Assembly (NCBI GenBank): GCA_947632325.1
Contig: CANROU010000002.1
Location: 43,840-107,839 of the forward strand
Source: an uncultured Bacilli bacterium
Lineage (GTDB): Bacteria; Bacillota_I; Bacilli_A; RF39; UBA660
Direction: 5' to 3'
DNA length: 64,000 nt
Numbering within the stretch: the first letter of the stretch is position 1; each line of letters opens with the position of its first letter. The translations under genes and the position numbers were made by a program. Shown in pieces: positions 3,240 through 46,195 of the stretch. The notes under the pieces were generated by a model that saw nothing but the letters and a program-made list of their open reading frames with translations, was not told where the DNA came from and did no database searches.

Positions 3240-3271
3240 CGGTATGGTATTAATATGAAAGGGATGGTTCT

Positions 3272-4258: not shown

Positions 4259-4344
4259 TTTTTAATTGACAGTAAACAAATGAAAATTAATTGACTTATA
4301 TAAGAAAAACAAATAAAATAAAGTTAAGAAAGTGAGGTTTTTGT

Positions 4345-6318: not shown

Positions 6319-6333
6319 AAAGGAGTTGATATC

Positions 6334-8103: not shown

Positions 8104-8123
8104 AAGGGAGAGTGTGATACTAT

Positions 8124-8444
8124 ATGAATGATATGTATTTAATACCTGCTAATACAAATAGAGGTAAATTAATTTTAGGAATATTTACATCTTTTGATTT
8201 GATATTATTTGGAGTGGGAGTATTTATTACTATAATATTAATGATGTTTGTTCCAATGACTAGTACAATAGTGACGGTTCTAATATTAGCACCGGCTTTG
8301 GTTTCAGCATTATTGGTAGCTCCTGTTCCTTATTATCATAATATTTTAACGGTTGTAAGAGAATTGATTGAGTTTTTTAACAATAGACAAAAATATGTTT
8401 GGAAAGGTTGGTGTAGTGGTTATGGCGACGATAGCAACAAGTAA
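8124..8444 (+). CDS. VirB3-like small membrane protein (PrgI/ConD-like)
   Basis: 106 aa, two hydrophobic helices, immediately upstream of and overlapping the VirB4 N-terminal gene, as in VirB3-VirB4 pairs. Confidence 0.35.
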   Translation: MNDMYLIPANTNRGKLILGIFTSFDLILFGVGVFITIILMMFVPMTSTIVTVLILAPALVSALLVAPVPYYHNILTVVRELIEFFNNRQKYVWKGWCSGYGDDSNK

Positions 8445-8970
8445 ATATACTGAAGATTGGTTACCCGTTGTTGGTATTCAAAATGGTTTAATTGAATTAC
8501 AAAATCATATGAAGGTAACAGGTGTTAAGATAGTACCACGTAATATTTTTATCTTGGATGCTGATGCTCAAAATAATGTTTTAATAAGTTTAAAAAATTT
8601 CTACAATATGATAGATTTTGAGTTTTGGTTAGTGGTAGCGGATAGGCCAGTGGATATTTCGGTTTATTTATCACAACTACAATTGCTATATAATAATACA
8701 CAATCACCAGTTATTCGTAAATTGATTAATCAAGATATTCAAAAGGGTAATACATTTATGAGTAATAATATTGTAGATACAGAATATTACATCTTATTTA
8801 AAGATAAAAATATTGATGCTATACAGAAGAAAATACGTTTATTAATTAATGGTTTAGCAGGCTGTGGATTAAGTGCTTCGCAAACCAGTAATGATGATTT
8901 ACGAGTAATTTTAGATAATTTCTTAAATGGGGGACAAACAACTGAATTTGGGACGGTGTTGCCAATATGA
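8422..8970 (+). CDS. VirB4/TrbE N-terminal domain encoded as a separate gene
   Basis: EDWLPVVGIQNGLIELQNHMKVTGVKIVPRNIF...EFWLVVADRPVDIS matches the conserved N-terminal region of VirB4/CagE/TrbE. Ends TGA inside an ATGA overlap with the ATPase gene. The longer ORF-track start at 8368 is less likely than ATG 8422. Confidence 0.55.
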   Translation: MATIATSKYTEDWLPVVGIQNGLIELQNHMKVTGVKIVPRNIFILDADAQNNVLISLKNFYNMIDFEFWLVVADRPVDISVYLSQLQLLYNNTQSPVIRKLINQDIQKGNTFMSNNIVDTEYYILFKDKNIDAIQKKIRLLINGLAGCGLSASQTSNDDLRVILDNFLNGGQTTEFGTVLPI

Positions 8971-10760
8971 CAAATAATAGATTAAAAGCACAATTAGCTC
9001 CTAAGGGTTTACAATTTAATGCTAGTGATTTCTTTATTAGTGATAAATACGCTACTATTTTATCAGTTGTATCATATCCTAAATATATTGCTCCAGGATA
9101 TTTATCATCACTTACTAATATGCCAGGTATTAAGGTAGTAATTAAGCATATTCCGGTTCCTTTTCAAACCATTTCTAAGATGTTAAATAAACAAATTGCT
9201 GATTTACGTGTTAGGTATCAAGAAGAAAGAGATCAAACAATGCAGGAGAGAATTAGACAAGATGCTGATTCATTGGAACAATTTACTTCTATGTTAGCAT
9301 CATCACAAGCCCGTATTTTTGATTTTCAAATGCACATTATGATAACGGCTGATAGTAAAGAAGAGTTGGAGCTTAAGAAAACTAATGTTAAGAATTATTT
9401 AGATGCTATGGAATTAAAAGCTATTTCTCTTCGTTTTGAACAGGAAAAGGTTTTGAAATCCATTCTACCAATTTTTCCTAAGCAAGAAATCGAAGATAGG
9501 ATAGGAACCCCAATTCCATCTATAACTGTTGCGGCTATGTATCCGTTTATATTTGATAGTATCAAAGATCCAGGATTATCTACTTTATTAGGTGTTGATT
9601 TTTCTGGTGGTGTTATTTTATTTAATCAATTCTTATATAAAATAAAAAAAGAAAATAATCGTAATAATGCTAATTTAATTATTTTAGGTACTTCTGGATC
9701 AGGTAAATCAACAGCTGCTAAGTTGATGTTAAGAAGTCATATTCGTAATGGTTGTCAAATTGTAGCCATCGATCCTGAAAATGAACTAGAAGATATGACA
9801 CGCCTTTATGGTGGAGATGTTATCGATCTTGGTAAAGGTGGCGAATTTGGGATGATTAATCCCTTAGAAGTGGTAATTGATGCTGATGAAGAAGAATTGA
9901 AACAGGGTCTTGGTTATACTGTTTTAACTAGAACGTTACAATTTTTAAAGGCCTTTATGAAGTATTATGATCCATCTATTGAAGAAGATGTCCTAACTTT
10001 ATTTAGTGAGGTTGTACAAGACACTTATAAACGTTTTCAAATTGATTTTAATACAGATTTTACCAAATTAACTTCTAAAGATTATCCAACTTTTTCGGAT
10101 GTTTATGCTACTATCAATGGTTGGTTAACTTCTATGACGGAACAAACACATGAAAGAGATATTATGGAACGTTTAGAATTAAAAATTCGACCTCTTACTA
10201 AAGAATTGCGTTTCTTCTTTGATAGTCATACAACGATTACTCCTCAAAGTGATTTTATCGTTTTTAATATCAGGGAACTTATGAATGCAGAGGTTAATAT
10301 CCGTAATGCTTTGTTTTTCAATATTTTGAAATATGCTTGGGGTTTATGTTTGGATACAGATGTGGATACAGTTTTAATGGTTGATGAAGCTCATGTTTTA
10401 TTGGGACAAAATAATGTCTTGGGGGCAGATTTTTTAGCGCAAGTACAGCGTCGTGCTCGTAAATATAACACAGGAACGATTATTATTACACAACAACCAA
10501 GTGATTTCTGTGATCCATCGGTTATTACTCAAGGAAAAGCTATTTTTGATAATGCTTCTTATTACTTAGTAATGGGTTTAAGAAAACAAGCTGTAGAGGA
10601 TTTATCTTTACTTATAGATTTAAATGATAATGAAAAGGATAGCATTAAACGTTATTCACAAGGTGAGGCTCTATTTGTTTGTGGTAATCGTCGAATGCGT
10701 ATTAATGTTATTGTAACCCCAGAAGAGTTAGATTCGTTTGGTAGTGGGGGAGGATTTTAA
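8967..10760 (+). CDS. VirB4-type T4SS ATPase (C-terminal catalytic part)
   Basis: Walker A LGTSGSGKST, Walker B-like VLMVDEAHVLL, and arginine-rich AQVQRRARKYNTG motif. Size and order are typical of TcpF/ConE/PrgJ. Confidence 0.8.
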   Translation: MTNNRLKAQLAPKGLQFNASDFFISDKYATILSVVSYPKYIAPGYLSSLTNMPGIKVVIKHIPVPFQTISKMLNKQIADLRVRYQEERDQTMQERIRQDADSLEQFTSMLASSQARIFDFQMHIMITADSKEELELKKTNVKNYLDAMELKAISLRFEQEKVLKSILPIFPKQEIEDRIGTPIPSITVAAMYPFIFDSIKDPGLSTLLGVDFSGGVILFNQFLYKIKKENNRNNANLIILGTSGSGKSTAAKLMLRSHIRNGCQIVAIDPENELEDMTRLYGGDVIDLGKGGEFGMINPLEVVIDADEEELKQGLGYTVLTRTLQFLKAFMKYYDPSIEEDVLTLFSEVVQDTYKRFQIDFNTDFTKLTSKDYPTFSDVYATINGWLTSMTEQTHERDIMERLELKIRPLTKELRFFFDSHTTITPQSDFIVFNIRELMNAEVNIRNALFFNILKYAWGLCLDTDVDTVLMVDEAHVLLGQNNVLGADFLAQVQRRARKYNTGTIIITQQPSDFCDPSVITQGKAIFDNASYYLVMGLRKQAVEDLSLLIDLNDNEKDSIKRYSQGEALFVCGNRRMRINVIVTPEELDSFGSGGGF

Positions 10761-10842
10761 TTATGAGGACTAACTAGCTAACACAAGTTAGCTAGTTTCA
10801 TAGTTAAAATATTTAATGCAAGTCAGTAGGTGGTGATGATTA

Positions 10843-13119
10843 ATGGCATATAAGGCTAATAGAGGCAATAACCAAAATAATTTGCAACAATCTAATCAAG
10901 ATGATACTTCTAATAGCGAAGCTGCTAAAACAGCTAAACAGCAAGAAAATCGTGATAATACTAAAAACGTTGCTAAAAATGTAGGTTCTATGGCTTTACA
11001 AGGTATGGGAGTACCTGCTCCTATAGCAAAAATGGCTACTAATAAAATAGCTAAGAATCCTATAGTGAATAAGGCCTTAAATAAAGCTAGTGACAAAATA
11101 AATAAAAATCCACTTGCTAATAAGGCTATTAATCAAATGGCTAACAGCAAATTAGATGCTGCGGGAAAATCTTCTAACAACCCAGGTTCATCTAGTAAAG
11201 ACTCACAAAATGGTACGAAAAATGCTGAAGGTCGTAATGGACAAAGTACATCTAATAATTCTAGGTCTAATAGTAATCAGCGAAATTCATCACCAAATAG
11301 ATCTAATGATAAAAAAGATGGAGAAGGTAGTTCTAAGGTATCAGGATCGGTTGAGGGTAGTAGTCTTATACCTAAAGCTCTTAAAATAAAATTGATATTA
11401 ATTGGTGCGGCAGCCGCTGCTGGATTATTCCTAATTATTGTTGTTTTTGCTGTTATTTCTAGTTTCAATCCCTTTTTTGGTGTTGATAAATCATCTGGTA
11501 AATCAACTGATTTAGGGGAATTTGATATTGATCCTGATTCTGATGAAGGTAAGTTTTATAATAAAGTTAATGAAGTAGCTGCCGAATACAATACAAACGG
11601 GACACCATTTGATCCTAGACTTATTGCTTCTGTTTTTACGACAATTAATAATTATGATGATAATTATAGTTATGAGGAAGCTACCAATGATATTGAGACA
11701 TTAGCTAATTTTATGGTGGAAAACACTATAACTTGTCAATATGGGGAAGAAACGCAGCATGTTGTTGATAAACCTTGTCCAGAGGGCTATAATGAGGTAA
11801 GTAGAACAAGAGATATTAATGAAAAAAAATTTAAGGATAAATTAAAAACTGAATTTTTAAAAAATAAAGTTAAAACATTACCAGAGGATCAAATGGAATC
11901 ATTAGTTACGGATATATATCAATTAATTGAAGATTATAAGGAATTAATTGGGGAGAATCAAACAGTTTTAGCTGCTGGTGGTATGTGTACTTATAATGTT
12001 GATAACAAAACTATTTCTAATATCAAAGTTCGTCTTCTACAATGTGATGATGATAATCGGGGAGAACCAATTGAAGGTGAAGAATTGATTGATTTTGAAA
12101 AATATATCATGGGCGTTACTTATGCTGAAAATGGAAATGGACCACTAGAGGCTATGAAAACGGAAGCTATCGCGGCACGTAGTTTCGCTCTTACTAGAGC
12201 TAAAGATATGGGGGGAAATTTTAATATTAAATTACAAGAAGAAAATGGTGAAATGGTTTTATCTATTCGTAGTTGTACAGAAGATCAAGTATATTGTGAT
12301 CCAGATAAAGGTTGTTGGTCCAATGATAAAAATGCTAATGGTACTGTTCACTCGGGACAACAAGCAGGTAAACCTTATTCTAAGCCTCCTATACCAATGG
12401 ATTCACCTATTCGTAAGGCCATAGAAGAAACGAAAGGAACGGTTTTAGTAGATGATAGTGGGAACATTGTTATGACAAGTTATACTGATACTAATCATCA
12501 AAACTGGAACAGTTTAGCACAAGCAGGAAATGATTGTTTCCAAATATTAAAAAAGGATTATCCAAATGCCAGTAGATTACAGGCTTCTTGTTCTTTAGGA
12601 GCTGCCACTGGTGAATTTTCAAGTTGGAAACAATATGGTGCGCCATGGAGTTCTACTAAATTAGGCCCTGGGGGAGATACTATTGCGGAGTCGGGCTGTT
12701 TGGCAACTTCTATTGCTATTCAAATTGCCAGATCAGGTACTAGATTATTCATAGATCCTTTTAATCCAGGTGTTTTAGTAACGACAATGGCTGCTCATGG
12801 TGGCTTTGTTGGCAGCAGTATGCAATGGAATAATGCTTGGCAATTTGCTGCACCTGATTGGACTTTGGCTTGTGATTCTCGTAGTAGTAATAGTTGTTCT
12901 CTAAGTGGTACTAAGGCCAATAAAACTAATCAAATTGCTAGTTACTTAAATCAAGGCTATTATCCAGTGGTAGCTGTTAAAAATGAAGGGCATTGGGTAG
13001 CAATCGATCACGTTGAAGGTGATAATGTTTACATGTTTGATCCAGGTAGTAGTTCTACTTTATTATGGGATCAATATAGCTACACTGGTTCTAATAGAAT
13101 TTTGCTATTTAGAGGGTGA
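10843..13119 (+). CDS. T4SS-associated cell-wall hydrolase: Asn/Lys-rich repeat N-terminus, TM anchor, SpoIID/LytB-like domain, CHAP/NlpC-P60-like Cys-His peptidase domain
   Basis: Repeats AKNPIVNKALNKASDKINKNPLANKAINQ. TM at IKLILIGAAAAAGLFLIIVVF. LEAMKTEAIAARSFALTRA resembles the SpoIID signature (EALKAQAVAARTYAL). C-terminus has ESGCLATSIAIQIAR ... EGHWVAIDHVEG, a Cys/His dyad. Confidence 0.55.
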   Translation: MAYKANRGNNQNNLQQSNQDDTSNSEAAKTAKQQENRDNTKNVAKNVGSMALQGMGVPAPIAKMATNKIAKNPIVNKALNKASDKINKNPLANKAINQMANSKLDAAGKSSNNPGSSSKDSQNGTKNAEGRNGQSTSNNSRSNSNQRNSSPNRSNDKKDGEGSSKVSGSVEGSSLIPKALKIKLILIGAAAAAGLFLIIVVFAVISSFNPFFGVDKSSGKSTDLGEFDIDPDSDEGKFYNKVNEVAAEYNTNGTPFDPRLIASVFTTINNYDDNYSYEEATNDIETLANFMVENTITCQYGEETQHVVDKPCPEGYNEVSRTRDINEKKFKDKLKTEFLKNKVKTLPEDQMESLVTDIYQLIEDYKELIGENQTVLAAGGMCTYNVDNKTISNIKVRLLQCDDDNRGEPIEGEELIDFEKYIMGVTYAENGNGPLEAMKTEAIAARSFALTRAKDMGGNFNIKLQEENGEMVLSIRSCTEDQVYCDPDKGCWSNDKNANGTVHSGQQAGKPYSKPPIPMDSPIRKAIEETKGTVLVDDSGNIVMTSYTDTNHQNWNSLAQAGNDCFQILKKDYPNASRLQASCSLGAATGEFSSWKQYGAPWSSTKLGPGGDTIAESGCLATSIAIQIARSGTRLFIDPFNPGVLVTTMAAHGGFVGSSMQWNNAWQFAAPDWTLACDSRSSNSCSLSGTKANKTNQIASYLNQGYYPVVAVKNEGHWVAIDHVEGDNVYMFDPGSSSTLLWDQYSYTGSNRILLFRG

Positions 13120-13928
13120 AAAAAATGAAGAAATCTTATAAAATATTAATTGCTATTATTTTGATTTATGCTGTTATTATGATTATATTTGTAGGGATTC
13201 CTGCTATTAGAAAAAATAATAATGAAAAAAAAGGCACTTATCTTTTAGTAGGTAATGTTTCAAGATGGGAATATGTTAATAATACTTGGCAAAGTATTAC
13301 AGACATTAATAGTGTTCTTAGTAATAATTTATTTAAATGTTATGATGATGGTAATTATTTAGGTGAATTTGAGGTGCAGTATTATAATGATATATGGTAT
13401 TTGTTTGATAAAAACAATGATTCAAGAAAATTATCTAGTAGTTTTCTAGCCACCTCTAGTGCTAAAGAAATAGAGGTTATAGATCTTAATAATATCATGA
13501 CGAACCTTGATCAAGTAGATTTATCTTATGTCAATAAAGTATTAGAAGATAATTCTCTTCCTAGTGCTACTTTAACTACCTTAGGACTTCAAAATAAAAT
13601 AACTTTTGATTTTGATGGTGACAAACAAGAGGAGATGTTGTATACTATTTCTAATTGGTACGACGGACAGTCGCAAGATAAGATTTATTCTTTTGTCTTT
13701 TATGTTGATAATAATAATATTCAAATATTAAGAGAAGATATTGTTGATAAGATTGATATGTATGATAATCATCAATATCCTATTGTTGCTATTTTAGATA
13801 CTAATAATGATCATAAATATGAATTTATTATTAGCGAAGATAAATTAATGCAAGGTATGGAACAATGTCATATCATGTATCAATTAAAAAAAGGCCAATT
13901 TAATATAATTAAATCATGCGATGAGTAG
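13116..13928 (+). CDS. Membrane-anchored extracytoplasmic protein, possible VirB8/TcpC-like T4SS component
   Basis: Single N-terminal TM then ~235 aa ectodomain. Overlaps the upstream gene by 4 nt. Assignment is positional only. Confidence 0.25.
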   Translation: MKKMKKSYKILIAIILIYAVIMIIFVGIPAIRKNNNEKKGTYLLVGNVSRWEYVNNTWQSITDINSVLSNNLFKCYDDGNYLGEFEVQYYNDIWYLFDKNNDSRKLSSSFLATSSAKEIEVIDLNNIMTNLDQVDLSYVNKVLEDNSLPSATLTTLGLQNKITFDFDGDKQEEMLYTISNWYDGQSQDKIYSFVFYVDNNNIQILREDIVDKIDMYDNHQYPIVAILDTNNDHKYEFIISEDKLMQGMEQCHIMYQLKKGQFNIIKSCDE

Positions 13929-13941
13929 GGGAGGAATTTAA

Positions 13942-16149
13942 ATGAAATTGAAATTTCGGGCAGATCCACAAGATATATTAATCTTTGTTCTCTTTGCTAT
14001 ATTTCTTTTATATGTAGTAGCTATTGGGGTGGTTAATCTATCTACTTTAGCTGTTGAGGGACATTTTTATGGTTTAAATCCTTTAGTAGCATTTACACCT
14101 ACTTATATAAAAGCTACCATTGTATTTTATATTTTATTTCTCGCTGGTATTTTTGTTAGTGTTAGTTCTTATTTCTTTGAACGAGAAAAAGGGGTAGGAA
14201 TAACTACTGATAAAAAAGATAAAGGGTATAGTCGGTGGGCTAAAGATAAAGAAATTAAGGAAAGTAAAGATGTTGAGAAGGTTCTTATTTCAGATGAGAA
14301 TTCAACAGTCGCTGGTACTCCTTTGATTTATAAAGGGAATGAAATCTGGGTTGATAATGGTGAAAATCATACTTTAGTTATCGGTGCCACTGGTTCTGGT
14401 AAGACGCAATCAATTGTTTTACCGACAGTTAAAATCTTAGCTAAACATAAAGAATCGATGATTATTACTGATCCTAAAGGGGAAATTTATGAGCAAACAT
14501 CACAGATGTTAAGAGAAAGGGGATATCAGATTTTACTTTTGAATTTCCGTGATCCACAAGAAGGTAATGCTTGGAATCCCTTATCTTTGCCTTATGAAAT
14601 GTATAAAAATGGTCATCAGGACAAGGCTATTGAGTTATTAGATGACTTGGCTCTTAATATTTTGTATGAGGAAAACAGCGGTAATGCCGATCCCTTTTGG
14701 GAGAAAACATCAGCCGATTATTTCTCGGGTATAGCACTTGGTTTATTTGAGGATGCTAAACCAGAGGAAATTAATATTAATAGTATTAGTTTGATGACTA
14801 CAGTTGGTGAAGAAAAATTTGGAGGATCTACATATGTTAAAGAATATTTTAATAGTAAAGATCCAGCTAGTGCTGCAGCTATTAATGCTTCTAGTACTAT
14901 TATGGCTCCAAATGAAACCAAGGGTAGTATTTTGGCGGTCTTTAAACAAAAGATAAAATTATTTGCATCCCGTGAAAATTTATCCGAGATGTTATCGCAT
15001 ACAGATATAGATTTAGAGACAATTGGTGAAAAGCCAACAGCTTTATTTGTGGTTATTCAAGATGAAAAGACAACATATCATTCTTTAGTAACTATTTTAT
15101 TGAAGCAAGTTTATGAAACATTGATTGCTAATGCTCAAAAACATGGAGGAAAACTTCCTGTTCGTACGAATTTCTTATTGGATGAATTTGCCAACATGCC
15201 ACCATTAAAGAATGTTACAACGATGATTACTGCTGCTCGAAGCCGACAAATTCGTTTTACGATGATTATTCAAAATTTTGCTCAGTTAGATCAGGTTTAT
15301 GGTAAAGAAAATGCTGAAACCTTAAGAGGTAACTGTGGAAATTTAATTTATTTAATTACCACCGAATTAAAAGCTCTAGAAGAGATTAGTAAGATGTGCG
15401 GTGAAGTAAAATCGAAAAAAGATGATAAAACAGCTTCAACACCACTTGTTACGGTTAGTGATTTACAACGTATGAAAGAAAATGAAGTTATTATACTAAG
15501 ATTACGACAACAACCTTTTAAAACAAAATTTACTCCTGATTATAAGATAGACTGGGGTAAGAAATATCCTAAAGCTGAATTTCCTCATCGAGAGAAAATG
15601 CCTGTGGCAACTTTTGATATTCGTGAGTTTGTTAAAGAGATGAAACGTCAAAAATTGTTTAGTATGATGGAAGAAAACAACGGTCAAAATGGTGGTGGTG
15701 TGATGAATGCCACTGGTGGAATGCCACCTTTCAGTCCACCAAGTATGTTTAATATTAATCAAGAGCCAATGCCACCACTTAATCAAACTACAAATAATAC
15801 TAAAACATCTTCTGCTCCTGCAGATAAATTTGATGTGGATGATTTAGTAAGAAAAATCGACCAAAAGATAGCGGAATTAGAAGCCGAAGAAAAGAGAAAT
15901 AAACAACAAGCTGAGGCTTTTAATACTAAGATGCAACCTAGTGAGATTAATGCCGTAGAAGTTAAACCTAAAACAGAGGTAATATCTAACGAAAATCAGG
16001 TATTAAATGATAGAAAAACAGCTATAGAAGATACTACTTCCGTGGTTAAAGAAGAACCTAAGGCTATTATTCACACTGAAAACTTGCTATCTAATGATCC
16101 TGAAGAAGAAGATGATGATAATTTTTTTGATGACTTCTTTGATGATTAA
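13942..16149 (+). CDS. Type IV coupling protein (VirD4/TraG/TraD family) with acidic C-terminal tail
   Basis: Two N-terminal TMs. Walker A VIGATGSGKTQS, Walker B LFVVIQDE, and signature NFLLDEFANMPPL. C-terminal 250 aa has a Pro/Met/Asn-rich linker and ends EEEDDDNFFDDFFDD. Confidence 0.8.
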   Translation: MKLKFRADPQDILIFVLFAIFLLYVVAIGVVNLSTLAVEGHFYGLNPLVAFTPTYIKATIVFYILFLAGIFVSVSSYFFEREKGVGITTDKKDKGYSRWAKDKEIKESKDVEKVLISDENSTVAGTPLIYKGNEIWVDNGENHTLVIGATGSGKTQSIVLPTVKILAKHKESMIITDPKGEIYEQTSQMLRERGYQILLLNFRDPQEGNAWNPLSLPYEMYKNGHQDKAIELLDDLALNILYEENSGNADPFWEKTSADYFSGIALGLFEDAKPEEININSISLMTTVGEEKFGGSTYVKEYFNSKDPASAAAINASSTIMAPNETKGSILAVFKQKIKLFASRENLSEMLSHTDIDLETIGEKPTALFVVIQDEKTTYHSLVTILLKQVYETLIANAQKHGGKLPVRTNFLLDEFANMPPLKNVTTMITAARSRQIRFTMIIQNFAQLDQVYGKENAETLRGNCGNLIYLITTELKALEEISKMCGEVKSKKDDKTASTPLVTVSDLQRMKENEVIILRLRQQPFKTKFTPDYKIDWGKKYPKAEFPHREKMPVATFDIREFVKEMKRQKLFSMMEENNGQNGGGVMNATGGMPPFSPPSMFNINQEPMPPLNQTTNNTKTSSAPADKFDVDDLVRKIDQKIAELEAEEKRNKQQAEAFNTKMQPSEINAVEVKPKTEVISNENQVLNDRKTAIEDTTSVVKEEPKAIIHTENLLSNDPEEEDDDNFFDDFFDD

Positions 16150-16589: not shown

Positions 16590-17693
16590 GTGGAGATTAT
16601 AATGAATCAAGATTTAAAGAAAAGATTATTACTTATTGGTGCTATATTAGGAGGAATAATTGTTGTAATTACTATTATTGCGCTTATAGTTCATTTATTT
16701 ATTGGTGGCAGAATGTCTTATGATAAAGTTTTAGCTACAATGAAGGAAGCTGCTGTAAAATATTATGATGTACATTCTCAATTGCTTCCTAAAGAAGGTG
16801 AAGATAGTGTAGATGCATCTACTCTAGCTGAAACGGAATTTATGAAACCCTTAGCTAAAATAGTACCTAAGGGAAATAGCTGCACTGGTAAAGTGGTTGT
16901 TCGTTTAATTGATGATCATAAATATTCTTATACACCATATTTAGATTGTGGCAAAGATTATCAAACTATTGAATTATATAAAAAGATAACTGATAACAAA
17001 AATATTGTTACCTCATCTAATGGTTTATACCAAATTGGTGATGAGTATGTTTATCGTGGTGAAAATATTAATAATTATGTTCAATTACAAGATAGTATTT
17101 GGCGTATTACTAAAGTGACATCTAATCATGATATTCAATTGATTTTAGCTCAAAAAACTTCAAGTGATACATGGGATGATCGTTTTAATACTACTAAAAA
17201 CTATAATGCAGGTATTAATGATTACTCTGTAAGTAGAGTACGTGATTATCTTAAAAATCTCTATGAATCTAATACATTATTTGATGATAGTATCAAAGAT
17301 AAGTTAACACCATTTAATGCTTGCGTTGGTCATAGAGGTAGTGATGAGGCAGTAAATGATGGATCAATAGAATGTTCTACTACTATGGCTGGTGAAAAAT
17401 ATAGTCTATTACCATTAAATGAATATATTATGGCTAGTTTAGATTCTACATGTTCAAAACCAACGGATGCTCAATGCCAAAATTATAATTATTTAGCTTT
17501 TACGAGAAAATGGTGGACTATCACTGGTGATAAAAATAGTACTCATCAAGTATATGGTATAGACTCTGATGGTCAAATTAAGTTAAGTTCGGCTATGAGT
17601 ATGTTTGATATTCGGCCTATTGTTCGTTTAGCTAATAATGTTATGTACCAAAGTGGTGATGGTACTCTTGAAAATCCTTATCTTATAAAATAA
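16590..17693 (+). CDS. Membrane-anchored Cys-rich extracytoplasmic protein, unknown function
   Basis: N-terminal TM (LLLIGAILGGIIVVITIIALIVHLFIG), then 330 aa with 8 Cys. Good coding periodicity. Confidence 0.4.
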   Translation: MEIIMNQDLKKRLLLIGAILGGIIVVITIIALIVHLFIGGRMSYDKVLATMKEAAVKYYDVHSQLLPKEGEDSVDASTLAETEFMKPLAKIVPKGNSCTGKVVVRLIDDHKYSYTPYLDCGKDYQTIELYKKITDNKNIVTSSNGLYQIGDEYVYRGENINNYVQLQDSIWRITKVTSNHDIQLILAQKTSSDTWDDRFNTTKNYNAGINDYSVSRVRDYLKNLYESNTLFDDSIKDKLTPFNACVGHRGSDEAVNDGSIECSTTMAGEKYSLLPLNEYIMASLDSTCSKPTDAQCQNYNYLAFTRKWWTITGDKNSTHQVYGIDSDGQIKLSSAMSMFDIRPIVRLANNVMYQSGDGTLENPYLIK

Positions 17694-20961: not shown

Positions 20962-20996
20962 ACTTGAGTTTATAATCAAATATTTGTATAATAATA

Positions 20997-21590
20997 TTGA
21001 AGGTAGGTGCGAGGATGCAGGAAGATAATAGAAAATCTATGATTAAAAAATTAGGCATAGCTATTGCTTCTGTCATTTTGCTTATTGTAGTTGTAGCGGG
21101 AGTCAGTTATGCTTGGTTTACATTAACTTTACAAGGGAATAAAACACAAATTATTAAAACAGGTAATTTCGGATTAACTATAACACCTAAATCAGGAAGT
21201 GCTGGAGTTAGTTTAACTAAGTCCAAACCGCTTAGTGATACTTATGTTAAAAATAATTTGGCTTCTTTAAAACCCTATGAATTTACCGTAACTAATAACA
21301 GTGATATTTCTGCAACATATAAGTTAACGTTAGTAGATAATGCTCTTAGTACTGCTAGTAAAAGAACAAGTGATAGTGATGTTAGAGTTTATCTTGTAAA
21401 AGGAACAACTGTAACAAATAAAGGTTTAAATGAATTTGCTAGTAGATTGATTGATACAGGGACATTAGCCGCTAAGGGGACTGTATCATATAAAGTATTA
21501 TTTTATATAAAAGAAAGCGCTACTAATGCAGTACAAGGAACAGAATTCAATGCCAGTTTTAAAGTAGATGGAACACAGGTACTTAATTAG
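20997..21590 (+). CDS. Secreted protein with SipW-cognate-type signal peptide (TasA/camelysin-like) (likely true start at ATG 21015)
   Basis: Charged N-terminus, hydrophobic core LGIAIASVILLIVVVAGVSYAWFT resembling the T-x-A-x-F-S/T motif of SipW substrates. Ser/Thr-rich beta-type repeats follow. Confidence 0.35.
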   Translation: MKVGARMQEDNRKSMIKKLGIAIASVILLIVVVAGVSYAWFTLTLQGNKTQIIKTGNFGLTITPKSGSAGVSLTKSKPLSDTYVKNNLASLKPYEFTVTNNSDISATYKLTLVDNALSTASKRTSDSDVRVYLVKGTTVTNKGLNEFASRLIDTGTLAAKGTVSYKVLFYIKESATNAVQGTEFNASFKVDGTQVLN

Positions 21591-21610
21591 GTACAGTTAT
21601 GAGGTAACAA

Positions 21611-21916
21611 ATGATAAAAATAACAGTTACAAAAGATGAAGATAAATATAATCATATTATCGTTACGGGACATGCAGGATATGATAAATATGGTAAAGAT
21701 ATTGTTTGTAGTGCTGTAAGTAGTATTGTAACTACTTCTGTAAACGCTAGTTTATTACTTTATCCTAATAGTTTAACTTGTAATAGTAAAACGGGTCATG
21801 TGGAAATTTCTAATATTAAAGATAAGAAAGAAGTGCAGCTATTACTTGATAACATGCTTAATTTATTGACAGAATTAAAGGATGAGTATCCAAAATATAT
21901 AACTATTATTGATTAA
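21611..21916 (+). CDS. Prp-like cysteine protease (DUF464; ribosomal-processing protease family)
   Basis: GHAGYDKYGKDIVCSAVSSIVTT matches the His...Cys dyad region of Prp/YsxB. Not flanked by rplU/rpmA here. Confidence 0.5.
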   Translation: MIKITVTKDEDKYNHIIVTGHAGYDKYGKDIVCSAVSSIVTTSVNASLLLYPNSLTCNSKTGHVEISNIKDKKEVQLLLDNMLNLLTELKDEYPKYITIID

Positions 21917-21975
21917 ATAGATTGCGTTTTATTAATTGATATGATATACTGAATTATAATGTAGGAGGCTAAAAT

Positions 21976-22512
21976 ATGAAAAAGAAAAATGAAAAAGGAT
22001 TTACTTTAATTGAGTTATTGGCGGTTATTATCATTTTAGGAGTATTATTATTGATTGCTATTCCCGCAATGACAGGTATTATTGAAGGAGCTAAGAAAGA
22101 CAGCTGGGTTTCAACAGCTAAAAACTATATTTCACAAGTACGTTATAGTGCTCTACAAGGTGATTATGCGCTTCCTGGAAGAAGTGAATGTACAATTGTG
22201 AATGTTACGAAAATTAATTTGGAACAAGGGGATCCAACTAAAAGTGTTTATGGTCAAAAATGGAAAACTGCTTATGTGGCTATTATAAATACCCCAGGTA
22301 CTGATGGACAAGATAAATATACGTATTATTTTGGTGGATGTGATGCTGAAAATAATAGTATGGGCTGGACTGCTGAAAATAATATGACTAGAGCCGGTGT
22401 TTTAAGGAGAAATAGCAATTGCCCTGTTTCTGCTTCAGGAAATACTATTCAGGATGTAACTAATGGTGATAATAGCAGTACAACAACTTGTACTTGTGTT
22501 AATTGCCCCTAA
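21976..22512 (+). CDS. Type IV pilin / competence-type pilin paralog 1 (prepilin N-terminal cleavage-methylation motif)
   Basis: MKKKNEKG/FTLIELLAVIIILGVLLLIAIPA class III signal. ~150 aa globular domain with C-terminal Cys cluster. Confidence 0.75.
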   Translation: MKKKNEKGFTLIELLAVIIILGVLLLIAIPAMTGIIEGAKKDSWVSTAKNYISQVRYSALQGDYALPGRSECTIVNVTKINLEQGDPTKSVYGQKWKTAYVAIINTPGTDGQDKYTYYFGGCDAENNSMGWTAENNMTRAGVLRRNSNCPVSASGNTIQDVTNGDNSSTTTCTCVNCP

Positions 22513-22531
22513 TAGCTGAGGAGAAAAAGTT

Positions 22532-23056
22532 ATGAAAAAGAAAAATGATAAGGGCTTTACTTTGATTGAGTTATTGGCGGTTATTATCATTTTAGGAGTA
22601 TTATTATTAATTGCTATTCCCGCAATGACAGGTATTATTGAAGGTGCTAAGAAAGACAGCTGGGTATCAACAGCTAAAAACTATATTTCACAAGTACGTT
22701 ATAGTGCTCTACAAGGTGATTATACGCTCCCTGGAAAAGGTGGATGTACAATTGTGGATGTTAAGAGCATTAATTTGGAACAGGGTGATCCAACCAAAAG
22801 TGTTTATGGCCAAAACTGGGAACCTGCATATGTGGCAATTGTAAATCTCTCGGGTGCTGATGGACAAGATAAATATACATATTATTTTGGTGGATGTGAT
22901 ACTGAATTTAATAGTATGGACTGGACTGCTGAAAATAATATAACCCGAAAAGACGTTTTAAGGAGAAGAGGTTATTGTAATGTTTCTAAGGGTGATACTA
23001 TTGAGGCTATAACTAATGGTGCTAGTGGCAGTCAAAGTAAGTGTAGCGACCCTTAG
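22532..23056 (+). CDS. Type IV pilin paralog 2
   Basis: Same N-terminus (KG/FTLIELLAVIIILGVLLLIAIPA). >85 percent nucleotide identity to paralog 1 over the first ~330 bp. Confidence 0.75.
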   Translation: MKKKNDKGFTLIELLAVIIILGVLLLIAIPAMTGIIEGAKKDSWVSTAKNYISQVRYSALQGDYTLPGKGGCTIVDVKSINLEQGDPTKSVYGQNWEPAYVAIVNLSGADGQDKYTYYFGGCDTEFNSMDWTAENNITRKDVLRRRGYCNVSKGDTIEAITNGASGSQSKCSDP

Positions 23057-23092
23057 CCCGTTACTAGACCATATTAATCAAAGGAGAAATGT

Positions 23093-23635
23093 ATGAAGAA
23101 ATTAAATGAAAAGGGCTTTACTTTGATTGAGTTATTGGCGGTTATTATCATTTTAGGAGTATTATTATTAATTGCTATTCCCGCAATGACCGGTATTATT
23201 GAGGGAGCTAAGAAAGATAGCTGGATTTCAACAGCTAAAAACTATATTTCACAAGTACGTTATATGGCTTTACAAGGAGATATTTCTTTACCTGGGAAAA
23301 ATCAATGGGTTCCTGTTTTAATTAAGGATAGGCCTAATGGTACGTCCAGAATTAGTTTGGAACAAGGCAATGCTAATAATAGCGTTTATAATTCTCCTTG
23401 GCAAGAATATAGAACCTGTGTAGTGATTGCTAACGTGCCTGAAAACAATGGTGAAGATAAATATATTTATTATTTCTATGGTGTGGATAATGAAAATAAT
23501 TGTCAAGGTTTAACTCAAGAGTCTGAGTTAGATAGGAACGATGTTCAACGAAGGAACAATGCCAATTGCACACTAACTTGTAATGCACTTACTGTACCTA
23601 ATGCTACTTATATAGGAGGGTATGCTAATAGTTAA
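23093..23635 (+). CDS. Type IV pilin paralog 3 (divergent globular domain)
   Basis: Same N-terminal 65 aa. C-terminal domain unrelated at sequence level apart from Cys positions. Confidence 0.75.
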   Translation: MKKLNEKGFTLIELLAVIIILGVLLLIAIPAMTGIIEGAKKDSWISTAKNYISQVRYMALQGDISLPGKNQWVPVLIKDRPNGTSRISLEQGNANNSVYNSPWQEYRTCVVIANVPENNGEDKYIYYFYGVDNENNCQGLTQESELDRNDVQRRNNANCTLTCNALTVPNATYIGGYANS

Positions 23636-23691
23636 TTTGTAGGATAAAATGTTCTCAATTGAGAACTTTTTTTATAGAAGGAGGTAATGAT

Positions 23692-28504: not shown

Positions 28505-28936
28505 TTAAATGCATGGAACAAAGGTATCAGCTAAACATTTTAAGGCTCCAACACAGTTTAGATTGAATGTACAGTATGATTCTGTAGCTACATAAGGTGA
28601 TGCTGTTTGTGTTGTATCAGGATTAGGTGCTAAAATACGGCATGTACAACAACATCCATCTAAATTTTCAACTCTAAAAACACTAGAAGTTCCTGTTGTA
28701 CCATTTAAGGTATAAGGAAGAGCCCATAGTGTCGCATTACTACAAGAGTAAAAATTTATAGGTCTTGTGTTAAAGCAAACTACGGAAGGACAAGGACCTA
28801 AGAATGGTTTATCGCATCCTCCAGGTTGTTCATTATTTTGTTCTCCTCCACGTTGTAATTGTAAAATCACTTGTAAAATTTCATTTAAACACTGACAATT
28901 ATTAGTATTTGTTGAATCATTGTTTTGATTACACAT
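28505..28936 (-). CDS. CotY/CotZ/ExsY-family Cys-rich spore coat/exosporium protein, paralog A
   Basis: AAGGGGGAA RBS before the internal Met (MCNQNND...). CFNTRPINFY...SSVFRVENLDGCCCTCRIL...NLNCVGALKCL parallels B. subtilis CotZ (CFNTVFFRVERVHGSCATLSLL...). Confidence 0.55.
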   Translation of the reverse strand: MCNQNNDSTNTNNCQCLNEILQVILQLQRGGEQNNEQPGGCDKPFLGPCPSVVCFNTRPINFYSCSNATLWALPYTLNGTTGTSSVFRVENLDGCCCTCRILAPNPDTTQTASPYVATESYCTFNLNCVGALKCLADTFVPCI

Positions 28937-28952
28937 TATAATTCCCCCTTTC

Positions 28953-29369
28953 TTATAAACAGTCAACCACTACATCAGGTAAACATTGTAGGACACAAAC
29001 ACAATTTAGATTAATGGTTACAAACTGATTAGTTGTAATGTATGGTCTATTACTATCTGTAGTATCTGGATTATCTTCAAGTATTGATAATGTGACACAA
29101 CAACCATCTACTTTTTCTACCCTAAAGACACTACTACTTCTAGTTACGGTAGCGCCATTTTCTTCTGCTTGATATTCAATAGTGTATAAGTTATTTTGAC
29201 TAGTATAAAAAGTAACAGGTCTTGTATTAAAACAAGCTAAATTAGGACATCCTCCTAGAAATGGTTTGGTACACGAATTATCAATATTATCAATTTTTTC
29301 AGCATTTCGTTGTAATAGATCGATTACCTTTAATATTTTGGCAAAGCAACATTCTTCATTATTTGACAT
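28953..29369 (-). CDS. CotY/CotZ/ExsY-family Cys-rich spore coat/exosporium protein, paralog B
   Basis: Paralogous to the adjacent gene (CFNTRPVTFY...SSVFRVEKVDGCCVTLSILE...NLNCVCVLQCL); RBS AAAGGGG. Confidence 0.55.
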   Translation of the reverse strand: MSNNEECCFAKILKVIDLLQRNAEKIDNIDNSCTKPFLGGCPNLACFNTRPVTFYTSQNNLYTIEYQAEENGATVTRSSSVFRVEKVDGCCVTLSILEDNPDTTDSNRPYITTNQFVTINLNCVCVLQCLPDVVVDCL

Positions 29370-29589
29370 ATCATCCACCCCTTTATTTATTATCTAATAT
29401 AAGATATTCTCAAAATAGTTCTTGGTGTGTTATGAATACCTATATTTTATGTTATGCGAAAAACTTCTCAATTTGTATGAAAATGTCAAGCTTATTTTCA
29501 ATTATTAAAAGTTTTGATATTTAGTTGTAGAAAAAAAAAGAATGTATTATAATAAGACTATAGAATAAATATAGTAAGGAGAAATAAAG

Positions 29590-32369: not shown

Positions 32370-32900
32370 ATGATAAATAAGCAAAGTTTGTGGTTTTTAA
32401 CATTATTTAGTTTGATATTAGTACTTAGTGTTTACTATATTACTATGCCAAATGAGTTGTTGCTTACTAATAATAATCTTTATAGTAAAACGGATAGTAA
32501 TAATAAGGAAGAAGAGGAAACGACAGAAGATAATAGCAAAGTCACTTTAGAAGAAAGCGATTTGTTAGTGTCTATGCGTGTTAGTTTAGAAGAAGAAAGA
32601 ATAAGTTTAATGAACGATTTGCAAGAACAATTAACTAACAGCGAAACAACTGTGGAAGAGAAAAATAATGCTTATGAACAATTACGATATTTAAATCAAA
32701 TTCAAGGAACAGAAGAAAAATTAGAGGCTAAAATAAAAGATCAATTTCAATTAAACAGTTTTATTAAAATAGATAACAATCAAATTCAAGTGGTAGTAGC
32801 TAAAGATAAACATGATAGTACTCTTGCTAATAATATCATGAGAAGTATTCAAGAAGAGTATCAAGAAAAAATGTATATTACGGTTAAGTTTGAAAAATAA
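32370..32900 (+). CDS. Membrane-anchored coiled-coil protein, possibly SpoIIIAH-like
   Basis: N-terminal TM, acidic coiled-coil, C-terminal mixed alpha/beta segment. Lies next to efp, as the spoIIIA operon does in Bacillus. Weak. Confidence 0.25.
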   Translation: MINKQSLWFLTLFSLILVLSVYYITMPNELLLTNNNLYSKTDSNNKEEEETTEDNSKVTLEESDLLVSMRVSLEEERISLMNDLQEQLTNSETTVEEKNNAYEQLRYLNQIQGTEEKLEAKIKDQFQLNSFIKIDNNQIQVVVAKDKHDSTLANNIMRSIQEEYQEKMYITVKFEK

Positions 32901-32996
32901 TGCATAGTTAGGCATTACCCCCTCAACTTTCTTTTTTTTGGTCATAGAATACTATGAGTGAATAGTAATTAAACCTTCTAAAGAAGGAAAAAGGAG

Positions 32997-33212
32997 TTGA
33001 AGAAAGTGGGTAAAGGAATTTTAACTGCTAGAGAAAGAGAAGTTTTTGAACTATTAGTATTAAATAAAACTACTAAAGAGATAGCACATGAATTGAAAAT
33101 TAGTGAAAAAACAGTGCGAAATCATATTTCTAATGCCATGCAGAAATTAGGAGTTAAAGGTCGTGCTGGTGCGGTAGTAGAACTTTTAAAGTTAAAAGAA
33201 ATTTCTTTATAG
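32997..33212 (+). CDS. gerE: GerE, LuxR-family sporulation transcription regulator
   Basis: REREVFELLV.NKTTKEIA.EL.ISEKTVRNHISNAMQKLGVKGR..AVVELL is almost residue-for-residue the B. subtilis GerE HTH core. Confidence 0.85.
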   Translation: MKKVGKGILTAREREVFELLVLNKTTKEIAHELKISEKTVRNHISNAMQKLGVKGRAGAVVELLKLKEISL

Positions 33213-33261
33213 TCGTACTAAATTAGTACGACTTTTCATATGGTTTTATAGGTGATGATGT

Positions 33262-34203
33262 TTGTTAAAAAGACGAGCCCTTAGAAAGATTTTAATAACC
33301 ACGATTACTGTTTTTATTTTATTAGTTGTATATTTAATTCCAACACAAGATCAAAGTAGACCATTAGAAGCTAATTTAGAAGTTGAATATATCACAGGAT
33401 TAGGAACTAATTCCATATATTTATTAAATGAAAAGGGTTATTTGGTTAAAACAAAAATTTTATTAACTAGCAATGATATTATAGAACAGGTAGAAGAGAT
33501 TATTGAAAATTTAACAGATGGTAATGGTGCTTTTCCTTCATTATTAAAACCTGTTATTCCTGATAATGTCAAATTATTTAGTTGTACTATGGATCAAAAT
33601 ATTGTAAAGCTGGATTTCTCCAAAGAATATTTAGATATTCCTCAAGAATTGGAAGAAAAGGTATTGCAAGCAATAGTATACAGTATTTTAGATTTAAAAG
33701 GTGTAGATGGAGTAAAAATTTCCGTTGATGGCAATCCTTTAACTAAATTAAATAAAGCTAATACAAAATTACCAGATATTTTAACTAAAGATATTGGTAT
33801 TAATAAAAGATATGATATAAACGGAAGAGAAAATATTAATAAAGTGGTTATTTATTATTTGGATGAATATGAAAATAATACTTATTATGTTCCTGTCACT
33901 AAATATGTTAATGATACCAGGGATAAAATAAAAATTATTGTGGATAATTTAACTTCCAATTACATTTATGAACCTAATTTGATGAGTTTTTTAAATCAAG
34001 ATACGCAATTATTAAATTATGAAATTATTGATAATAATATGGTTCTTAATTTTAATGATGCCATATTTACTGATGAATCAAAAATTATCGAAGAGGTAGT
34101 CTATTCCATAGCTTATTCGGTATTTGATACTTATAATGTAGATAAAGTATTATTAAGAGTTAATGATCAAGATATTGTTAGTAAAACGATTTATGATAAT
34201 TAG
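33262..34203 (+). CDS. GerM-like protein (two GerMN-like repeats), membrane anchored
   Basis: N-terminal TM, then two ~120-aa repeats each ending in a V..N.L..L.F / V.LN.NDAIF-type segment. Placement next to gerE is supportive. Confidence 0.35.
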   Translation: MLKRRALRKILITTITVFILLVVYLIPTQDQSRPLEANLEVEYITGLGTNSIYLLNEKGYLVKTKILLTSNDIIEQVEEIIENLTDGNGAFPSLLKPVIPDNVKLFSCTMDQNIVKLDFSKEYLDIPQELEEKVLQAIVYSILDLKGVDGVKISVDGNPLTKLNKANTKLPDILTKDIGINKRYDINGRENINKVVIYYLDEYENNTYYVPVTKYVNDTRDKIKIIVDNLTSNYIYEPNLMSFLNQDTQLLNYEIIDNNMVLNFNDAIFTDESKIIEEVVYSIAYSVFDTYNVDKVLLRVNDQDIVSKTIYDN

Positions 34204-37563: not shown

Positions 37564-37567
37564 TATT

Positions 37568-38623: not shown

Positions 38624-38629
38624 TTATCA

Positions 38630-45925: not shown

Positions 45926-45974
45926 ATATGTTATAATAAAAGAAAAACAAAGAAGTTGAGGAGTATATTCTAAA

Positions 45975-46165: not shown

Positions 46166-46195
46166 TCTTTAATTGTTATAATAAAAAGAGAGGGA

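Follow-up and report, generated by a model that had tools for sequence, protein, structure and literature searches.

A predicted five-gene operon of an uncultured gut Bacilli bacterium groups a divergent TasA-like protein, a Prp protease away from its ribosomal neighbours and three type IV pilins

TasA, BsaA and the archaeal bundling pilin AbpA all donate an N-terminal strand in assembly. TasA of B. subtilis, a product of the tapA-sipW-tasA operon (structures 5of1 and 8aur), forms biofilm fibres and is small, secreted and beta-rich, with a flexible mature N-terminus. Its family, which includes BsaA, shows great sequence divergence, uses donor-strand exchange for assembly and frequently counts several paralogues in one locus. 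In C. perfringens, also a spore-forming Firmicute, a matrix or fibre protein of the TasA family is functionally tied to type IV pilins (T4P), since secretion from the sipW-bsaA-bsaB-bsaC matrix operon is PilA3- and T4P-dependent (PMC11580942, PMC7395162), and the BsaA oligomer's efficient secretion, and that of BsaC, needs the pilins PilA3 and PilA1 as well as other T4P proteins (PMC11580942). For AbpA (7ueg) the processing is done by a generic signal peptidase, and no peptidase gene of its own lies close by. Gram-positive pilin arrays consist of tandem paralogous genes of major-pilin size, usually placed in or near pilB/pilC/pilD/pilMNO clusters, and the products of clostridial pilA arrays as well as PilE1/PilE2 of Streptococcus sanguinis (8pfb) share a class III signal peptide with G(-1), F(+1) and E(+5). 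The cysteine protease Prp of Firmicutes is canonically encoded in the order rplU-ysxB(prp)-rpmA, that is, flanked by the genes for L21 and L27. The locus described below resembles each of these systems in part and departs from each of them.

The stretch of DNA analysed (64,000 nucleotides, hereafter the window) belongs to an uncultured, low-GC (29%), spore-forming gut bacterium of Bacilli type. Positions 20997-23635 of its + strand hold five genes in one direction, and all five open reading frames (ORFs) of a preliminary description of this DNA were recovered at the same coordinates. From 5′ to 3′ they encode a 191-aa exported protein (secretion is predicted), Prp and type IV prepilins 1, 2 and 3, and the unit is flanked by rnj (RNase J) and nfo (likely start ATG 23692). 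The intergenic gaps are only 19-59 nt and each gene is preceded by a ribosome-binding site (RBS). A sigma-70-type promoter is predicted at 20964..20992 (+ strand, TTGAGT-17-TATAAT, 10 of 12 consensus positions, 22 nt 5′ of ATG 21015) and an intrinsic terminator between pilin 3 and nfo at 23651..23673 (+ strand, the hairpin GTTCTCAATTGAGAAC and then T7). It may be noted that both are predictions from consensus matches, and that the promoter scan is of low specificity (53 sites found against 41 expected). The tight spacing, the common orientation and the single flanking promoter/terminator pair suggest that the five genes are co-transcribed. The TasA-like/Prp/pilin junctions are spanned in three independent ENA metagenome contigs from other samples, at 100% identity in L001 and L003 and 97.5% in L002, which rules out an assembly chimera or artefact, and all five genes are intact. 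Recent horizontal acquisition is also unsupported, since the third-position GC (GC3) of the TasA-like gene and prp (0.14-0.16) is host-like (0.14-0.23 in host genes) and that of the pilins (0.20-0.25) reaches or slightly exceeds the upper end of the host values. The layout is genuine, though specific to this lineage. We consider it moderately likely that the locus is a native unit of filament or matrix subunits using machinery encoded elsewhere, and that its Prp is an L27 protease whose gene was translocated or duplicated.

The first ORF, 197 aa long when read from TTG 20997, likely has its true start at ATG 21015, 5 nt downstream of the RBS AGGTAGGTG (21001-21009). The gene then spans 21015..21590 (+ strand) and the product of 191 aa equals the deposited protein P0001. 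In the longer ORF, AGVSYAWFTLT comes after a basic n-region and a hydrophobic stretch of 18 residues, so that the YAWF-type signal proposed earlier is present as described. The predicted cleavage of this TasA-type signal peptide is SYA↓WF (Ala33↓Trp34; arrows mark cleavage sites), where AGVSYA↓WFTL corresponds to GGGTWA↓AFND of TasA, and after it comes a beta-sandwich domain some 150 residues long. The only Pfam match of the ORF is Peptidase_M73 (PF12389, camelysin/TasA), covering residues 15-65 only at 17.6 bits, below the gathering threshold of 22.5. Its E value of 0.0036 (0.0036-0.0039 for the protein) falls within the E≤0.005 by which proteins were called TasA-like in PMC9245690. A stronger link came from hhalign, where the profile of 30 family members matched PDB-verified TasA (8aur/5of1) with 81.8% probability and E 1.1e-5 over 78 columns, restricted to the N-terminal half (family columns 8-94 against TasA 4-81). 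This alignment keeps the motifs of the first ~80 residues in order (GTLxL strand, NxxP, FxFxNxG), and the TasA cleavage site A27↓A28 lands on SYA↓W. The C-terminal half is unalignable with TasA and the mature domain is shorter (~158 aa, ~17 kDa, as against 234 aa). AlphaFold2 models reached pLDDT 83 and 80, with a confident sandwich and the first 10 mature residues disordered (pLDDT 35). With Foldseek, neither the full-length nor the mature-domain model gave a PDB match at E≤1e-3, and TasA itself (5of1/8aur) was outside the top 50. The best, though weak, structural matches were to donor-strand fibre proteins, namely AbpA (7ueg, probability 0.98, TM 0.30) and CanA (9hdi, probability 0.85, TM 0.37), with no significant sequence similarity to AbpA or CanA/AbpX; AbpX gave faint profile matches. 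It may be noted that AbpA hosts are archaeal and that, compared with AbpA, the present gene has no AbpB/TapA-like neighbour. Judged by these alignments the N-terminal half is homologous to TasA, and the protein probably belongs, as a very divergent case, to the TasA/camelysin/BsaA superfamily. The lack of a Foldseek match to TasA, the limitation of the profile match to the N-terminal half and the sub-threshold PF12389 score count against this. The preliminary assignment as TasA/camelysin-like is thus borne out for the signal peptide and the N-terminal half.

A word-indexed homology search with the 191-aa protein matched only itself, while an exhaustive HMMER search gave a family of about 1,100 cluster representatives for which there is no Pfam or NCBIfam model. 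PF12389 is the best Pfam match, below threshold, for 10 of 30 members, and one relative (P0238) has a precomputed PF12389 match. The signal motif (S/T)(Y/F)A↓W(L/F) is found in at least 141 of 150 relatives, and its -1 Ala has residue 29 as median position. The module either stands alone or, in many relatives and unlike TasA, is fused to the N-terminus of leucine-rich-repeat (LRR) adhesins of up to 2,133 aa. Other short members occur singly or as tandem pairs amid housekeeping genes with no dedicated peptidase; specifically, no S26 peptidase or sipW gene adjoins five of them. Processing in trans therefore appears normal for the family. In the present case export would go through Sec, with a type I signal peptidase cutting behind the invariant Ala of S-Y-A↓W-F, and the mature sandwich might then polymerise, or dock on related proteins, through its donated flexible N-terminal strand (WFTLTLQGNK...).

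The three pilin genes lie at 21976..22512 (prepilin 1, 178 aa, with a strong RBS AGGAGG), 22532..23056 (prepilin 2, 174 aa) and 23093..23635 (prepilin 3, 180 aa), all on the + strand. Their leaders follow MKK(K/L)N(E/D)KG↓FTLIE (MKKKNEKG↓FTLIE in pilin 1), and all three have a short basic leader up to Gly, Phe(+1), Glu(+5) and a hydrophobic helix of ~20 residues, as in MKKKNEKG↓FTLIELLAVIIILGVLLLIAIPAM, that is, the signal of the Gram-positive pilins named above. The curated cut-offs are exceeded in each case (PF07963 32-36 bits against 21.2, TIGR02532 30-33 against 16.3), and pilins 2 and 3 are 78% and 61% identical to pilin 1; their description as paralogous prepilins therefore holds. ComGC (NF040999) was rejected as an identity, the scores being 33-34 bits against a cut-off of 75 over the N-terminal 52-55 residues only, and the proteins being 174-180 aa long as against ~100 aa. 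The N-terminal helix matches PilE1, geopilin, MshA, GspG and PpdD, with matches to solved pilins ending at about residue 68. For the globular heads no recognisable sequence relatives were found, and JGI metagenomes gave three weak matches only for the pilins. Pilin 3 is like pilin 1 in the N-terminal 57 residues except for three substitutions, with a divergent head, and at the nucleotide level the first ~180 nt of the paralogues are 88-98% identical as against 36-75% at the 3′ end. From this pattern the three genes look like products of recent tandem duplication in which the N-terminal helix has stayed constant and the heads diversify. In one strain variant pil1 and pil2 are cleanly joined into a chimera, and the pilin array is recombinationally active.

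As opposed to the known Gram-positive pilin loci, genes of the pilB/pilC/pilD/pilMNO type are lacking for at least 21 kb upstream and 40 kb downstream. A Pfam search of essentially all ORFs of ≥90 aa found no T2SSE, T2SSF or Peptidase_A24 protein (PilB/C/D, Tad) and no S26/SipW protein in the 64 kb, and a PilB-type ATPase used as phmmer query likewise returned no T2SSE-family protein. The preliminary description had noted no adjacent PilB/PilC/PilD-like genes and a locus of structural subunits alone; both points extend to the full 64 kb, which contain no ATPase, platform protein, prepilin peptidase or signal peptidase for it. As compared with the B. subtilis operon both sipW and tapA are missing from the 64 kb, and as compared with C. 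perfringens bsa there is no SipW, VWA protein or sortase. The lack of a dedicated peptidase gene nearby is shared with AbpA. A Tad-like block had been named as a possible source of machinery, a suggestion that the window does not support. No Tad/Flp pilus genes (TadA/CpaF, TadB/C, Flp pilin, TadV) or T2SSE-family protein are present in the 64 kb, and the only secretion-type block, possibly the one meant, is a conjugative type IV secretion module at 4825-16149 with a VirB4-like ATPase, a VirD4/TraG coupling protein and a T4SS_pilin-like protein. Conjugative VirB4/VirD4 systems do not assemble type IV pilins. Because the 64 kb hold no machinery for assembly or processing, we infer that it is encoded elsewhere in the genome, where a prepilin peptidase would cut the pilins and a PilB/PilC-type machine would polymerise them.

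A different relation between the two kinds of subunit, possible but on the whole unlikely, is that a short type IV pilus or pseudopilus made of these pilins helps to push the TasA-like protein across the thick peptidoglycan. Such a 'type II secretion-like' route of Gram-positive kind would perhaps serve the large adhesin-bearing relatives too, and the shared operon would reflect the partnership. The pilin-dependent secretion of BsaA and BsaC in C. perfringens (PMC11580942) is in its favour, as is the placing of the TasA-like gene and three pilin genes apparently under one promoter and one terminator, whereas the pilin and bsa genes of C. perfringens are in separate loci, with a dedicated SipW. 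But the pairing is known from a single lineage only. None of the five other short TasA-like contexts has an adjacent pilin or T4P gene, the nearest exception being a lone T2SSE ATPase 6 kb off in L011, and the nearest pilin relative with context (L035) adjoins PilB/PilT and not a TasA-like gene. Also, folded proteins are held to cross peptidoglycan up to a size limit of ~25 kDa (PMC11580942), which the mature protein at ~17 kDa does not reach.

We regard as distinctly improbable a fortuitous juxtaposition by rearrangement, whereby a TasA-like gene and a pilin array, both orphans, would have come together with a translocated prp and share no significant function or regulation. The arrangement is unique to the lineage, and every protein of the islet is a singleton among ~15 billion proteins. 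The TasA-like genes of relatives are scattered amid housekeeping genes, with neither pilins nor Prp beside them, so there is no conserved cassette of this composition, and orphan pilin genes are found in relatives too (e.g. L023, L033). The recombinational activity of the pilin array would also suit such an origin. Set against this are the features that suggest co-transcription (spacing, orientation, promoter/terminator pair) and the retention of five intact genes in the same order, at 97.5-100% identity, in three other samples.

The prp gene (21611..21916, + strand) lies between the TasA-like gene and a pilin gene and encodes a 101-aa Prp (MEROPS C108) identified from Pfam and catalytic residues. 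The protein scores 83.3 bits on PF04327, the family of the canonical ysxB product (threshold 27, profile positions 1-89 of 90), with His21, Asp30 and Cys33 intact (GH21AGY...KD30IVC33), as in canonical Prp; in SaPrp the catalytic His-Cys dyad and the loop Asp are H22, C34 and D31 (PMC9405229). It retains 21 of the 21 columns conserved across 22 operon Prps, and its mean identity to these (46%) is within their own range of 31-50%. On NF011132 it scores 64 bits against a cut-off of 133, but the bona fide operon-embedded Prps of relatives score just 64-76, so the whole lineage falls below the NCBIfam cut-off and the control rules out a 'divergent Prp' on this ground. L21 and L27 are absent from the entire 64 kb by tblastn, in line with the earlier remark on missing ribosomal neighbours, and of the Prps from ~27 distinct loci examined it alone does not lie between L21 and L27. 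Either the genome's only copy has moved out of rplU-prp-rpmA, or this is a little-diverged duplicate. The L27 proteins of relatives all bear an N-terminal extension ...(N/D)(I/L)Q(L/F)F↓A(H/S), and on its sequence this Prp most likely still acts as the protease that trims the L27 extension, being merely co-transcribed here. It speaks against this reading that a sole essential copy of Prp would be oddly located in a surface-protein operon.

Prp also cleaves phage capsid proteins, and the preliminary description had suggested that the present one could act on a non-ribosomal substrate. In that case a neofunctionalised paralogue would trim a cytoplasmic N-terminal segment of the TasA-like precursor, of the prepilins or of an unseen pilus component, which we find very hard to credit. 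The isolation of the gene from L21 and L27 and its place in an operon of exported proteins agree with such a role, and FlhB carrying the same motif has been proposed in a review as a non-L27 substrate (PMC9405229). Against these, the columns, the mid-range identity and the NCBIfam score reveal no divergence from operon Prps. None of the window ORFs of ≥60 aa, the four neighbours included, has an L27-type motif (N/D)(I/L)Q(L/F)F↓A or its looser form Q[LFHY]F[AST], and the F-containing sites of the neighbours (YAWF↓T, KG↓FT) are standard signal-peptidase and prepilin-peptidase sites processed by membrane enzymes. The arrangement is moreover conserved in no other sampled genome. The proposal of a neighbouring substrate is hence unsupported. 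Equally far-fetched is a dedicated module with a type IV pilin-based pseudopilus to export or anchor a donor-strand fibre of TasA-like protein, onto which the large LRR-adhesin members might be threaded too, and with Prp co-opted as a cytoplasmic maturation or checkpoint enzyme for one of these components. If true, this would be the first non-ribosomal, non-phage cellular role of Prp, and TasA and type IV pilus systems would for the first time be seen fused in a genome.

The locus exposes a large unmodelled family of very divergent TasA-like modules in uncultured gut Bacilli. A little-explored section of the gut microbiota may accordingly be rich in donor-strand fibres, some of them possibly with adhesins on display. 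The putative TasA-like and pilin operon also lends circumstantial genomic support to the proposal of T4P-assisted secretion of TasA-family proteins in C. perfringens (PMC11580942), and it offers a rare natural instance of prp outside the rplU-rpmA operon. These points on fibre prevalence, secretion and Prp relocation are modest and not established, and the organism is uncultured. Prp is pursued as an antibiotic target, and its relocation, duplication or use of other substrates would bear on its essentiality and specificity as such. The canonical Prp P0006 comes from samples other than those with the islet. In two of ~25 loci (L033 and L023) pilin-like genes lie 2-5 kb from L21-Prp-L27, which is about the level of chance, and an ancestral linkage of pilin genes with the Prp operon was therefore dropped.

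The islet consists, as in the preliminary description and at the same coordinates, of five ORFs on the + strand: a TasA-like ORF (20997-21590, 197 aa as listed), a Prp ORF (21611-21916, 101 aa) and the ORFs of pilin 1 (21976-22512, 178 aa), pilin 2 (22532-23056, 174 aa) and pilin 3 (23093-23635, 180 aa). For the TasA-like gene, the ATG at 21015, 5 nt past the RBS AGGTAGGTG, appears the more likely start, which gives a 191-aa product as in the deposited copy (P0001). The intergenic gaps are 20, 59, 19 and 36 nt, and each of the five genes has its own RBS ahead of it. Since the predicted promoter (TTGAGT-17-TATAAT, 20964-20992) and the predicted hairpin with a T7 run between pilin 3 and nfo (23651-23673) are consensus matches, and the promoter scan total barely exceeds shuffled expectation, we only infer co-transcription of the islet. 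Housekeeping genes flank it, with RNase J upstream and endonuclease IV (nfo), DUF2624, PBP2 and RodA downstream. GC3 is 0.16 for the TasA-like gene, 0.14 for prp, 0.20-0.25 for the pilins and 0.14-0.23 for host genes, and by this measure there is no clear sign of a recent import. An assembly artefact as the source of the arrangement is ruled out by three short ENA contigs from other samples, which run across the TasA-like/Prp/pilin junctions with identities of 100%, 100% and 97.5%. The reading that we consider most likely, and fairly probable, is a joint one: the islet is a native operon of structural subunits with the machinery encoded elsewhere and with Prp still acting on L27. The TasA-like precursor would leave the cytoplasm via Sec, with a signal peptidase, either a general one or one of the SipW type, cleaving it behind SYA, and the mature protein would then polymerise or dock via donor-strand exchange. 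For the prepilins, cleavage would fall to a prepilin peptidase and assembly to a distant PilB/PilC system, and L27 would still be processed by the islet Prp. The parts of the islet all belong to known kinds; the arrangement is unusual yet lineage-specific, and its proposed function is putative.

The only Pfam match of the first ORF falls below threshold and is to the N-terminal part of Peptidase_M73 (camelysin/TasA, E 0.0036). Over 30 members of its family PF12389 was the commonest Pfam match (10 of 30, best E 2.5e-4), and one family relative carries a precomputed PF12389 match. Hhalign of the family profile with B. subtilis TasA (query sequence checked against PDB 8aur/5of1) gave a probability of 81.8% and an E of 1.1e-5, with family columns 8-94 corresponding to TasA residues 4-81. 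The alignment bears out the TasA-like signal claimed earlier, as it places A27|A28, the known SipW cleavage site of TasA, on SYA|WF of the islet protein, where S at -3 and A at -1 fit the signal-peptidase rule. AF2 returned confident beta-sandwich models (full-length pLDDT 83; mature domain pLDDT 80, pTM 0.77) in which mature residues 1-10 are disordered, and this modelled disorder would fit a donor strand, though only as a hint. Foldseek of both models against the PDB gave nothing at E<=1e-3, with TasA outside the top 50; of the relevant matches, the donor-strand fibre proteins AbpA (7ueg, prob 0.98, TM 0.30) and CanA (9hdi, prob 0.85, TM 0.37) ranked best, and AbpX gave faint profile matches. 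We would call the 191-aa protein a distant member of the TasA/camelysin superfamily because of the sequence-profile evidence over its N-terminal half.

The main by-product of the analysis is a large unannotated TasA-like family that includes adhesin-bearing members. A word-indexed search with the 191-aa protein found no match beyond itself. Exhaustive HMMER, run over 1.84 billion cluster representatives, brought up 1,128 relatives at E<=1e-3, of which 159 reach E<=1e-10. Of the best 150, 52 consist of the module (about 185 residues) by itself, and in 98 it is the N-terminus of a longer protein, of up to 2,133 aa (e.g. P0091, P0095 and P0170). Some long members contain a second, tandem module or domains of the leucine-rich-repeat adhesin type, the latter being weak matches to HupY/LrrG and Gli349. 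An LPxTG anchor is absent from all of the best 150, and no Pfam or NCBIfam model scores above threshold on the family. In its alignment, a basic n-region and a long hydrophobic region precede the hallmark (S/T)-(Y/F)-A-W-(L/F), which is present in at least 141 of 150 members with its Ala at median residue 29 and is followed by the conserved strands K.GTL.L.L, NA.P..D, Y.F.L.N.G, LRLWID and F..K.RI.A.Q.

The three tandem prepilins of the preliminary description were confirmed, as all score above the curated Pfam and NCBIfam cut-offs for the prepilin N-terminal methylation domain and have a canonical class III signal (G-1, F+1, E+5). ComGC identity was rejected, the proteins being below the equivalog cut-off and too long. 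With solved pilins (S. sanguinis PilE1, geopilin, MshA, GspG, PpdD) they can be aligned over the N-terminal helix only. At the DNA level the three genes are 88-98% identical across the first ~180 nt and 36-75% toward the 3' end; a constant helix with a variable head is the usual pilin pattern. The ENA contig of 97.5% identity (L002, ERZ27249578; compared with window 21976-22855), a strain variant, has a clean pilin 1/pilin 2 chimera directly 3' of prp: nt 1-192 of this gene show no difference from pilin 1, and from nt 136 onward it has none from pilin 2. This indicates homologous recombination, by deletion or gene conversion, inside the tandem array, which is therefore recombining between strains. 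The islet pilins are singletons in a 15-billion-protein collection, and JGI metagenomes hold three weak relatives only; the sole one with informative context (contig L035) adjoins PilB- and PilT-type ATPases, a typical setting for a pilin gene.

As to machinery, the Pfam scans took in essentially all window ORFs of at least 90 aa and found no T2SSE, T2SSF or Peptidase_A24 domain, no Tad component and no S26/SipW peptidase. Phmmer with the PilB-type ATPase of L011, a contig of a distant relative, had no match in the window either. The description of structural subunits without adjacent machinery thus extends to the whole window, and the suggested link to a Tad-like block is not supported. The sole secretion-related block found by Pfam is a conjugative type IV secretion module (4825-16149), which may be what was taken for it. 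It encodes a 497-aa protein whose C-terminus is T4SS_pilin-like (4825-6318), a VirB4-like ATPase (8967-10760), a SpoIID-domain protein of 758 aa (10843-13119) and a coupling protein of the VirD4/TraG type (13942-16149). GC in the module is slightly up (0.31-0.34), and the module probably represents an integrated conjugative element or a remnant of one. To our knowledge, type IV pilins are not assembled by systems of the VirB4/VirD4 kind. Pfam left several ORFs of 119-367 aa without a match at E<=1e-3 (121-903, 2691-4704, 16590-17693, 45119-45925 and 60786-61565), the three at 2691-4704 lying just upstream of the module.

The grouping of the islet is not conserved. In five other neighbourhoods of short TasA-like members, the gene is single or in a tandem pair amid housekeeping genes (RNase R...ThrRS, transporter...ClpB-SecA or ThrRS, for example). 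Across all the loci compared, neither HMM nor motif scans detected a pilin, Prp, SipW or sortase gene next to the TasA-like ones, and no Prp homologue was found to adjoin pilins; pilin-like genes 2-5 kb from the L21-Prp-L27 operon in two contigs (L033, L023) are at about chance level. The shared operon could instead reflect a real partnership of the TasA-like protein with the pilins, by analogy with C. perfringens, where BsaC and the oligomers of BsaA, a TasA-family protein, are secreted efficiently only with the help of type IV pilins and T4P proteins (PMC11580942); we regard this as rather unlikely and weaker than a native operon of subunits. That the islet genes came together by chance is improbable. 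It may be noted that tandem TasA-like pairs lie between RNase R and ThrRS in four contigs (L015 7029-8424, L016, L046 9001-10386, L047), a few kb downstream of ComEA/ComEC and with signal peptidase and sortase absent nearby; they may be heteropolymer partners. L011 (Logan SRR30282454) shares local gene content with the window, namely RNase J with a TasA-like gene a few kb downstream, and Zip and QueH with a ~270-aa ORF after them. At 6 kb from its TasA-like gene it carries an isolated ATPase of the T2SSE family (424 aa), with no pilin motif nearby.

The 101-aa ORF is Prp (Pfam score 83 bits, gathering score 27) with the catalytic stretch GH21AGY...KD30IVC33, equivalent to H22, D31 and C34 of S. 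aureus Prp (PMC9405229). The closest of 86 homologues is 57% identical. Five context look-ups and 18 species-representative genomes, all checked by tblastn, gave ~27 distinct loci, every one in the order L21-Prp-L27; the islet copy is the sole exception, and tblastn found neither L21 nor L27 in the window, so that the reported want of ribosomal neighbours holds. The islet Prp is not diverged from operon Prps: its mean identity to 22 of them is 46% (their own means being 31% to 50%), it retains every one of the 21 columns whose conservation among these Prps is 85% or more, and its NCBIfam score of 64 bits, against a cut-off of 133, compares with 64-76 bits for bona fide operon Prps of relatives. 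All L27 proteins of relatives carry the leader ...(N/D)(I/L)Q(L/F)F|A(H/S), matching the published cleavage motif MLxx(D/N)LQ(F/L)F'A(S/H)KK (PMC9405229). This motif, even relaxed, occurs in none of the window ORFs of at least 60 aa, the four islet neighbours included, whose F-containing sites are ordinary signal-peptidase (SYA|WF) and prepilin-peptidase (KG|FT) sites. With a canonical sequence, no motif and ordinary neighbouring sites, nothing points to a new substrate; the non-ribosomal one suggested earlier is thus not borne out, and a neofunctionalised Prp is very improbable.

The window host is a spore-forming, wall-bearing, low-GC Firmicute, with GerA/B/C, SpoIIIAH, CotZ-like proteins, PBP2, RodA/FtsW, NusA, IF-2, SMC and EF-P found by Pfam, and a T-box-regulated class I aminoacyl-tRNA synthetase. 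CotZ-like spore coat genes form an adjacent pair at 28505-29378 (-), with SpoIIIAH and a Germane-domain protein at 32370-34203, a gerA-type germinant receptor operon at 36493-40066 (-), and a 246-aa protein with collagen triple-helix repeats, which may be a BclA-like exosporium fibre, at 41421-42161 (-). The T-box leader (45941-46141, 127.7 bits) is directly upstream of the 835-aa synthetase (46115-48622), which matches a Leu-type editing domain; the listed GTG start overlaps the leader, and the true start is therefore probably farther downstream.
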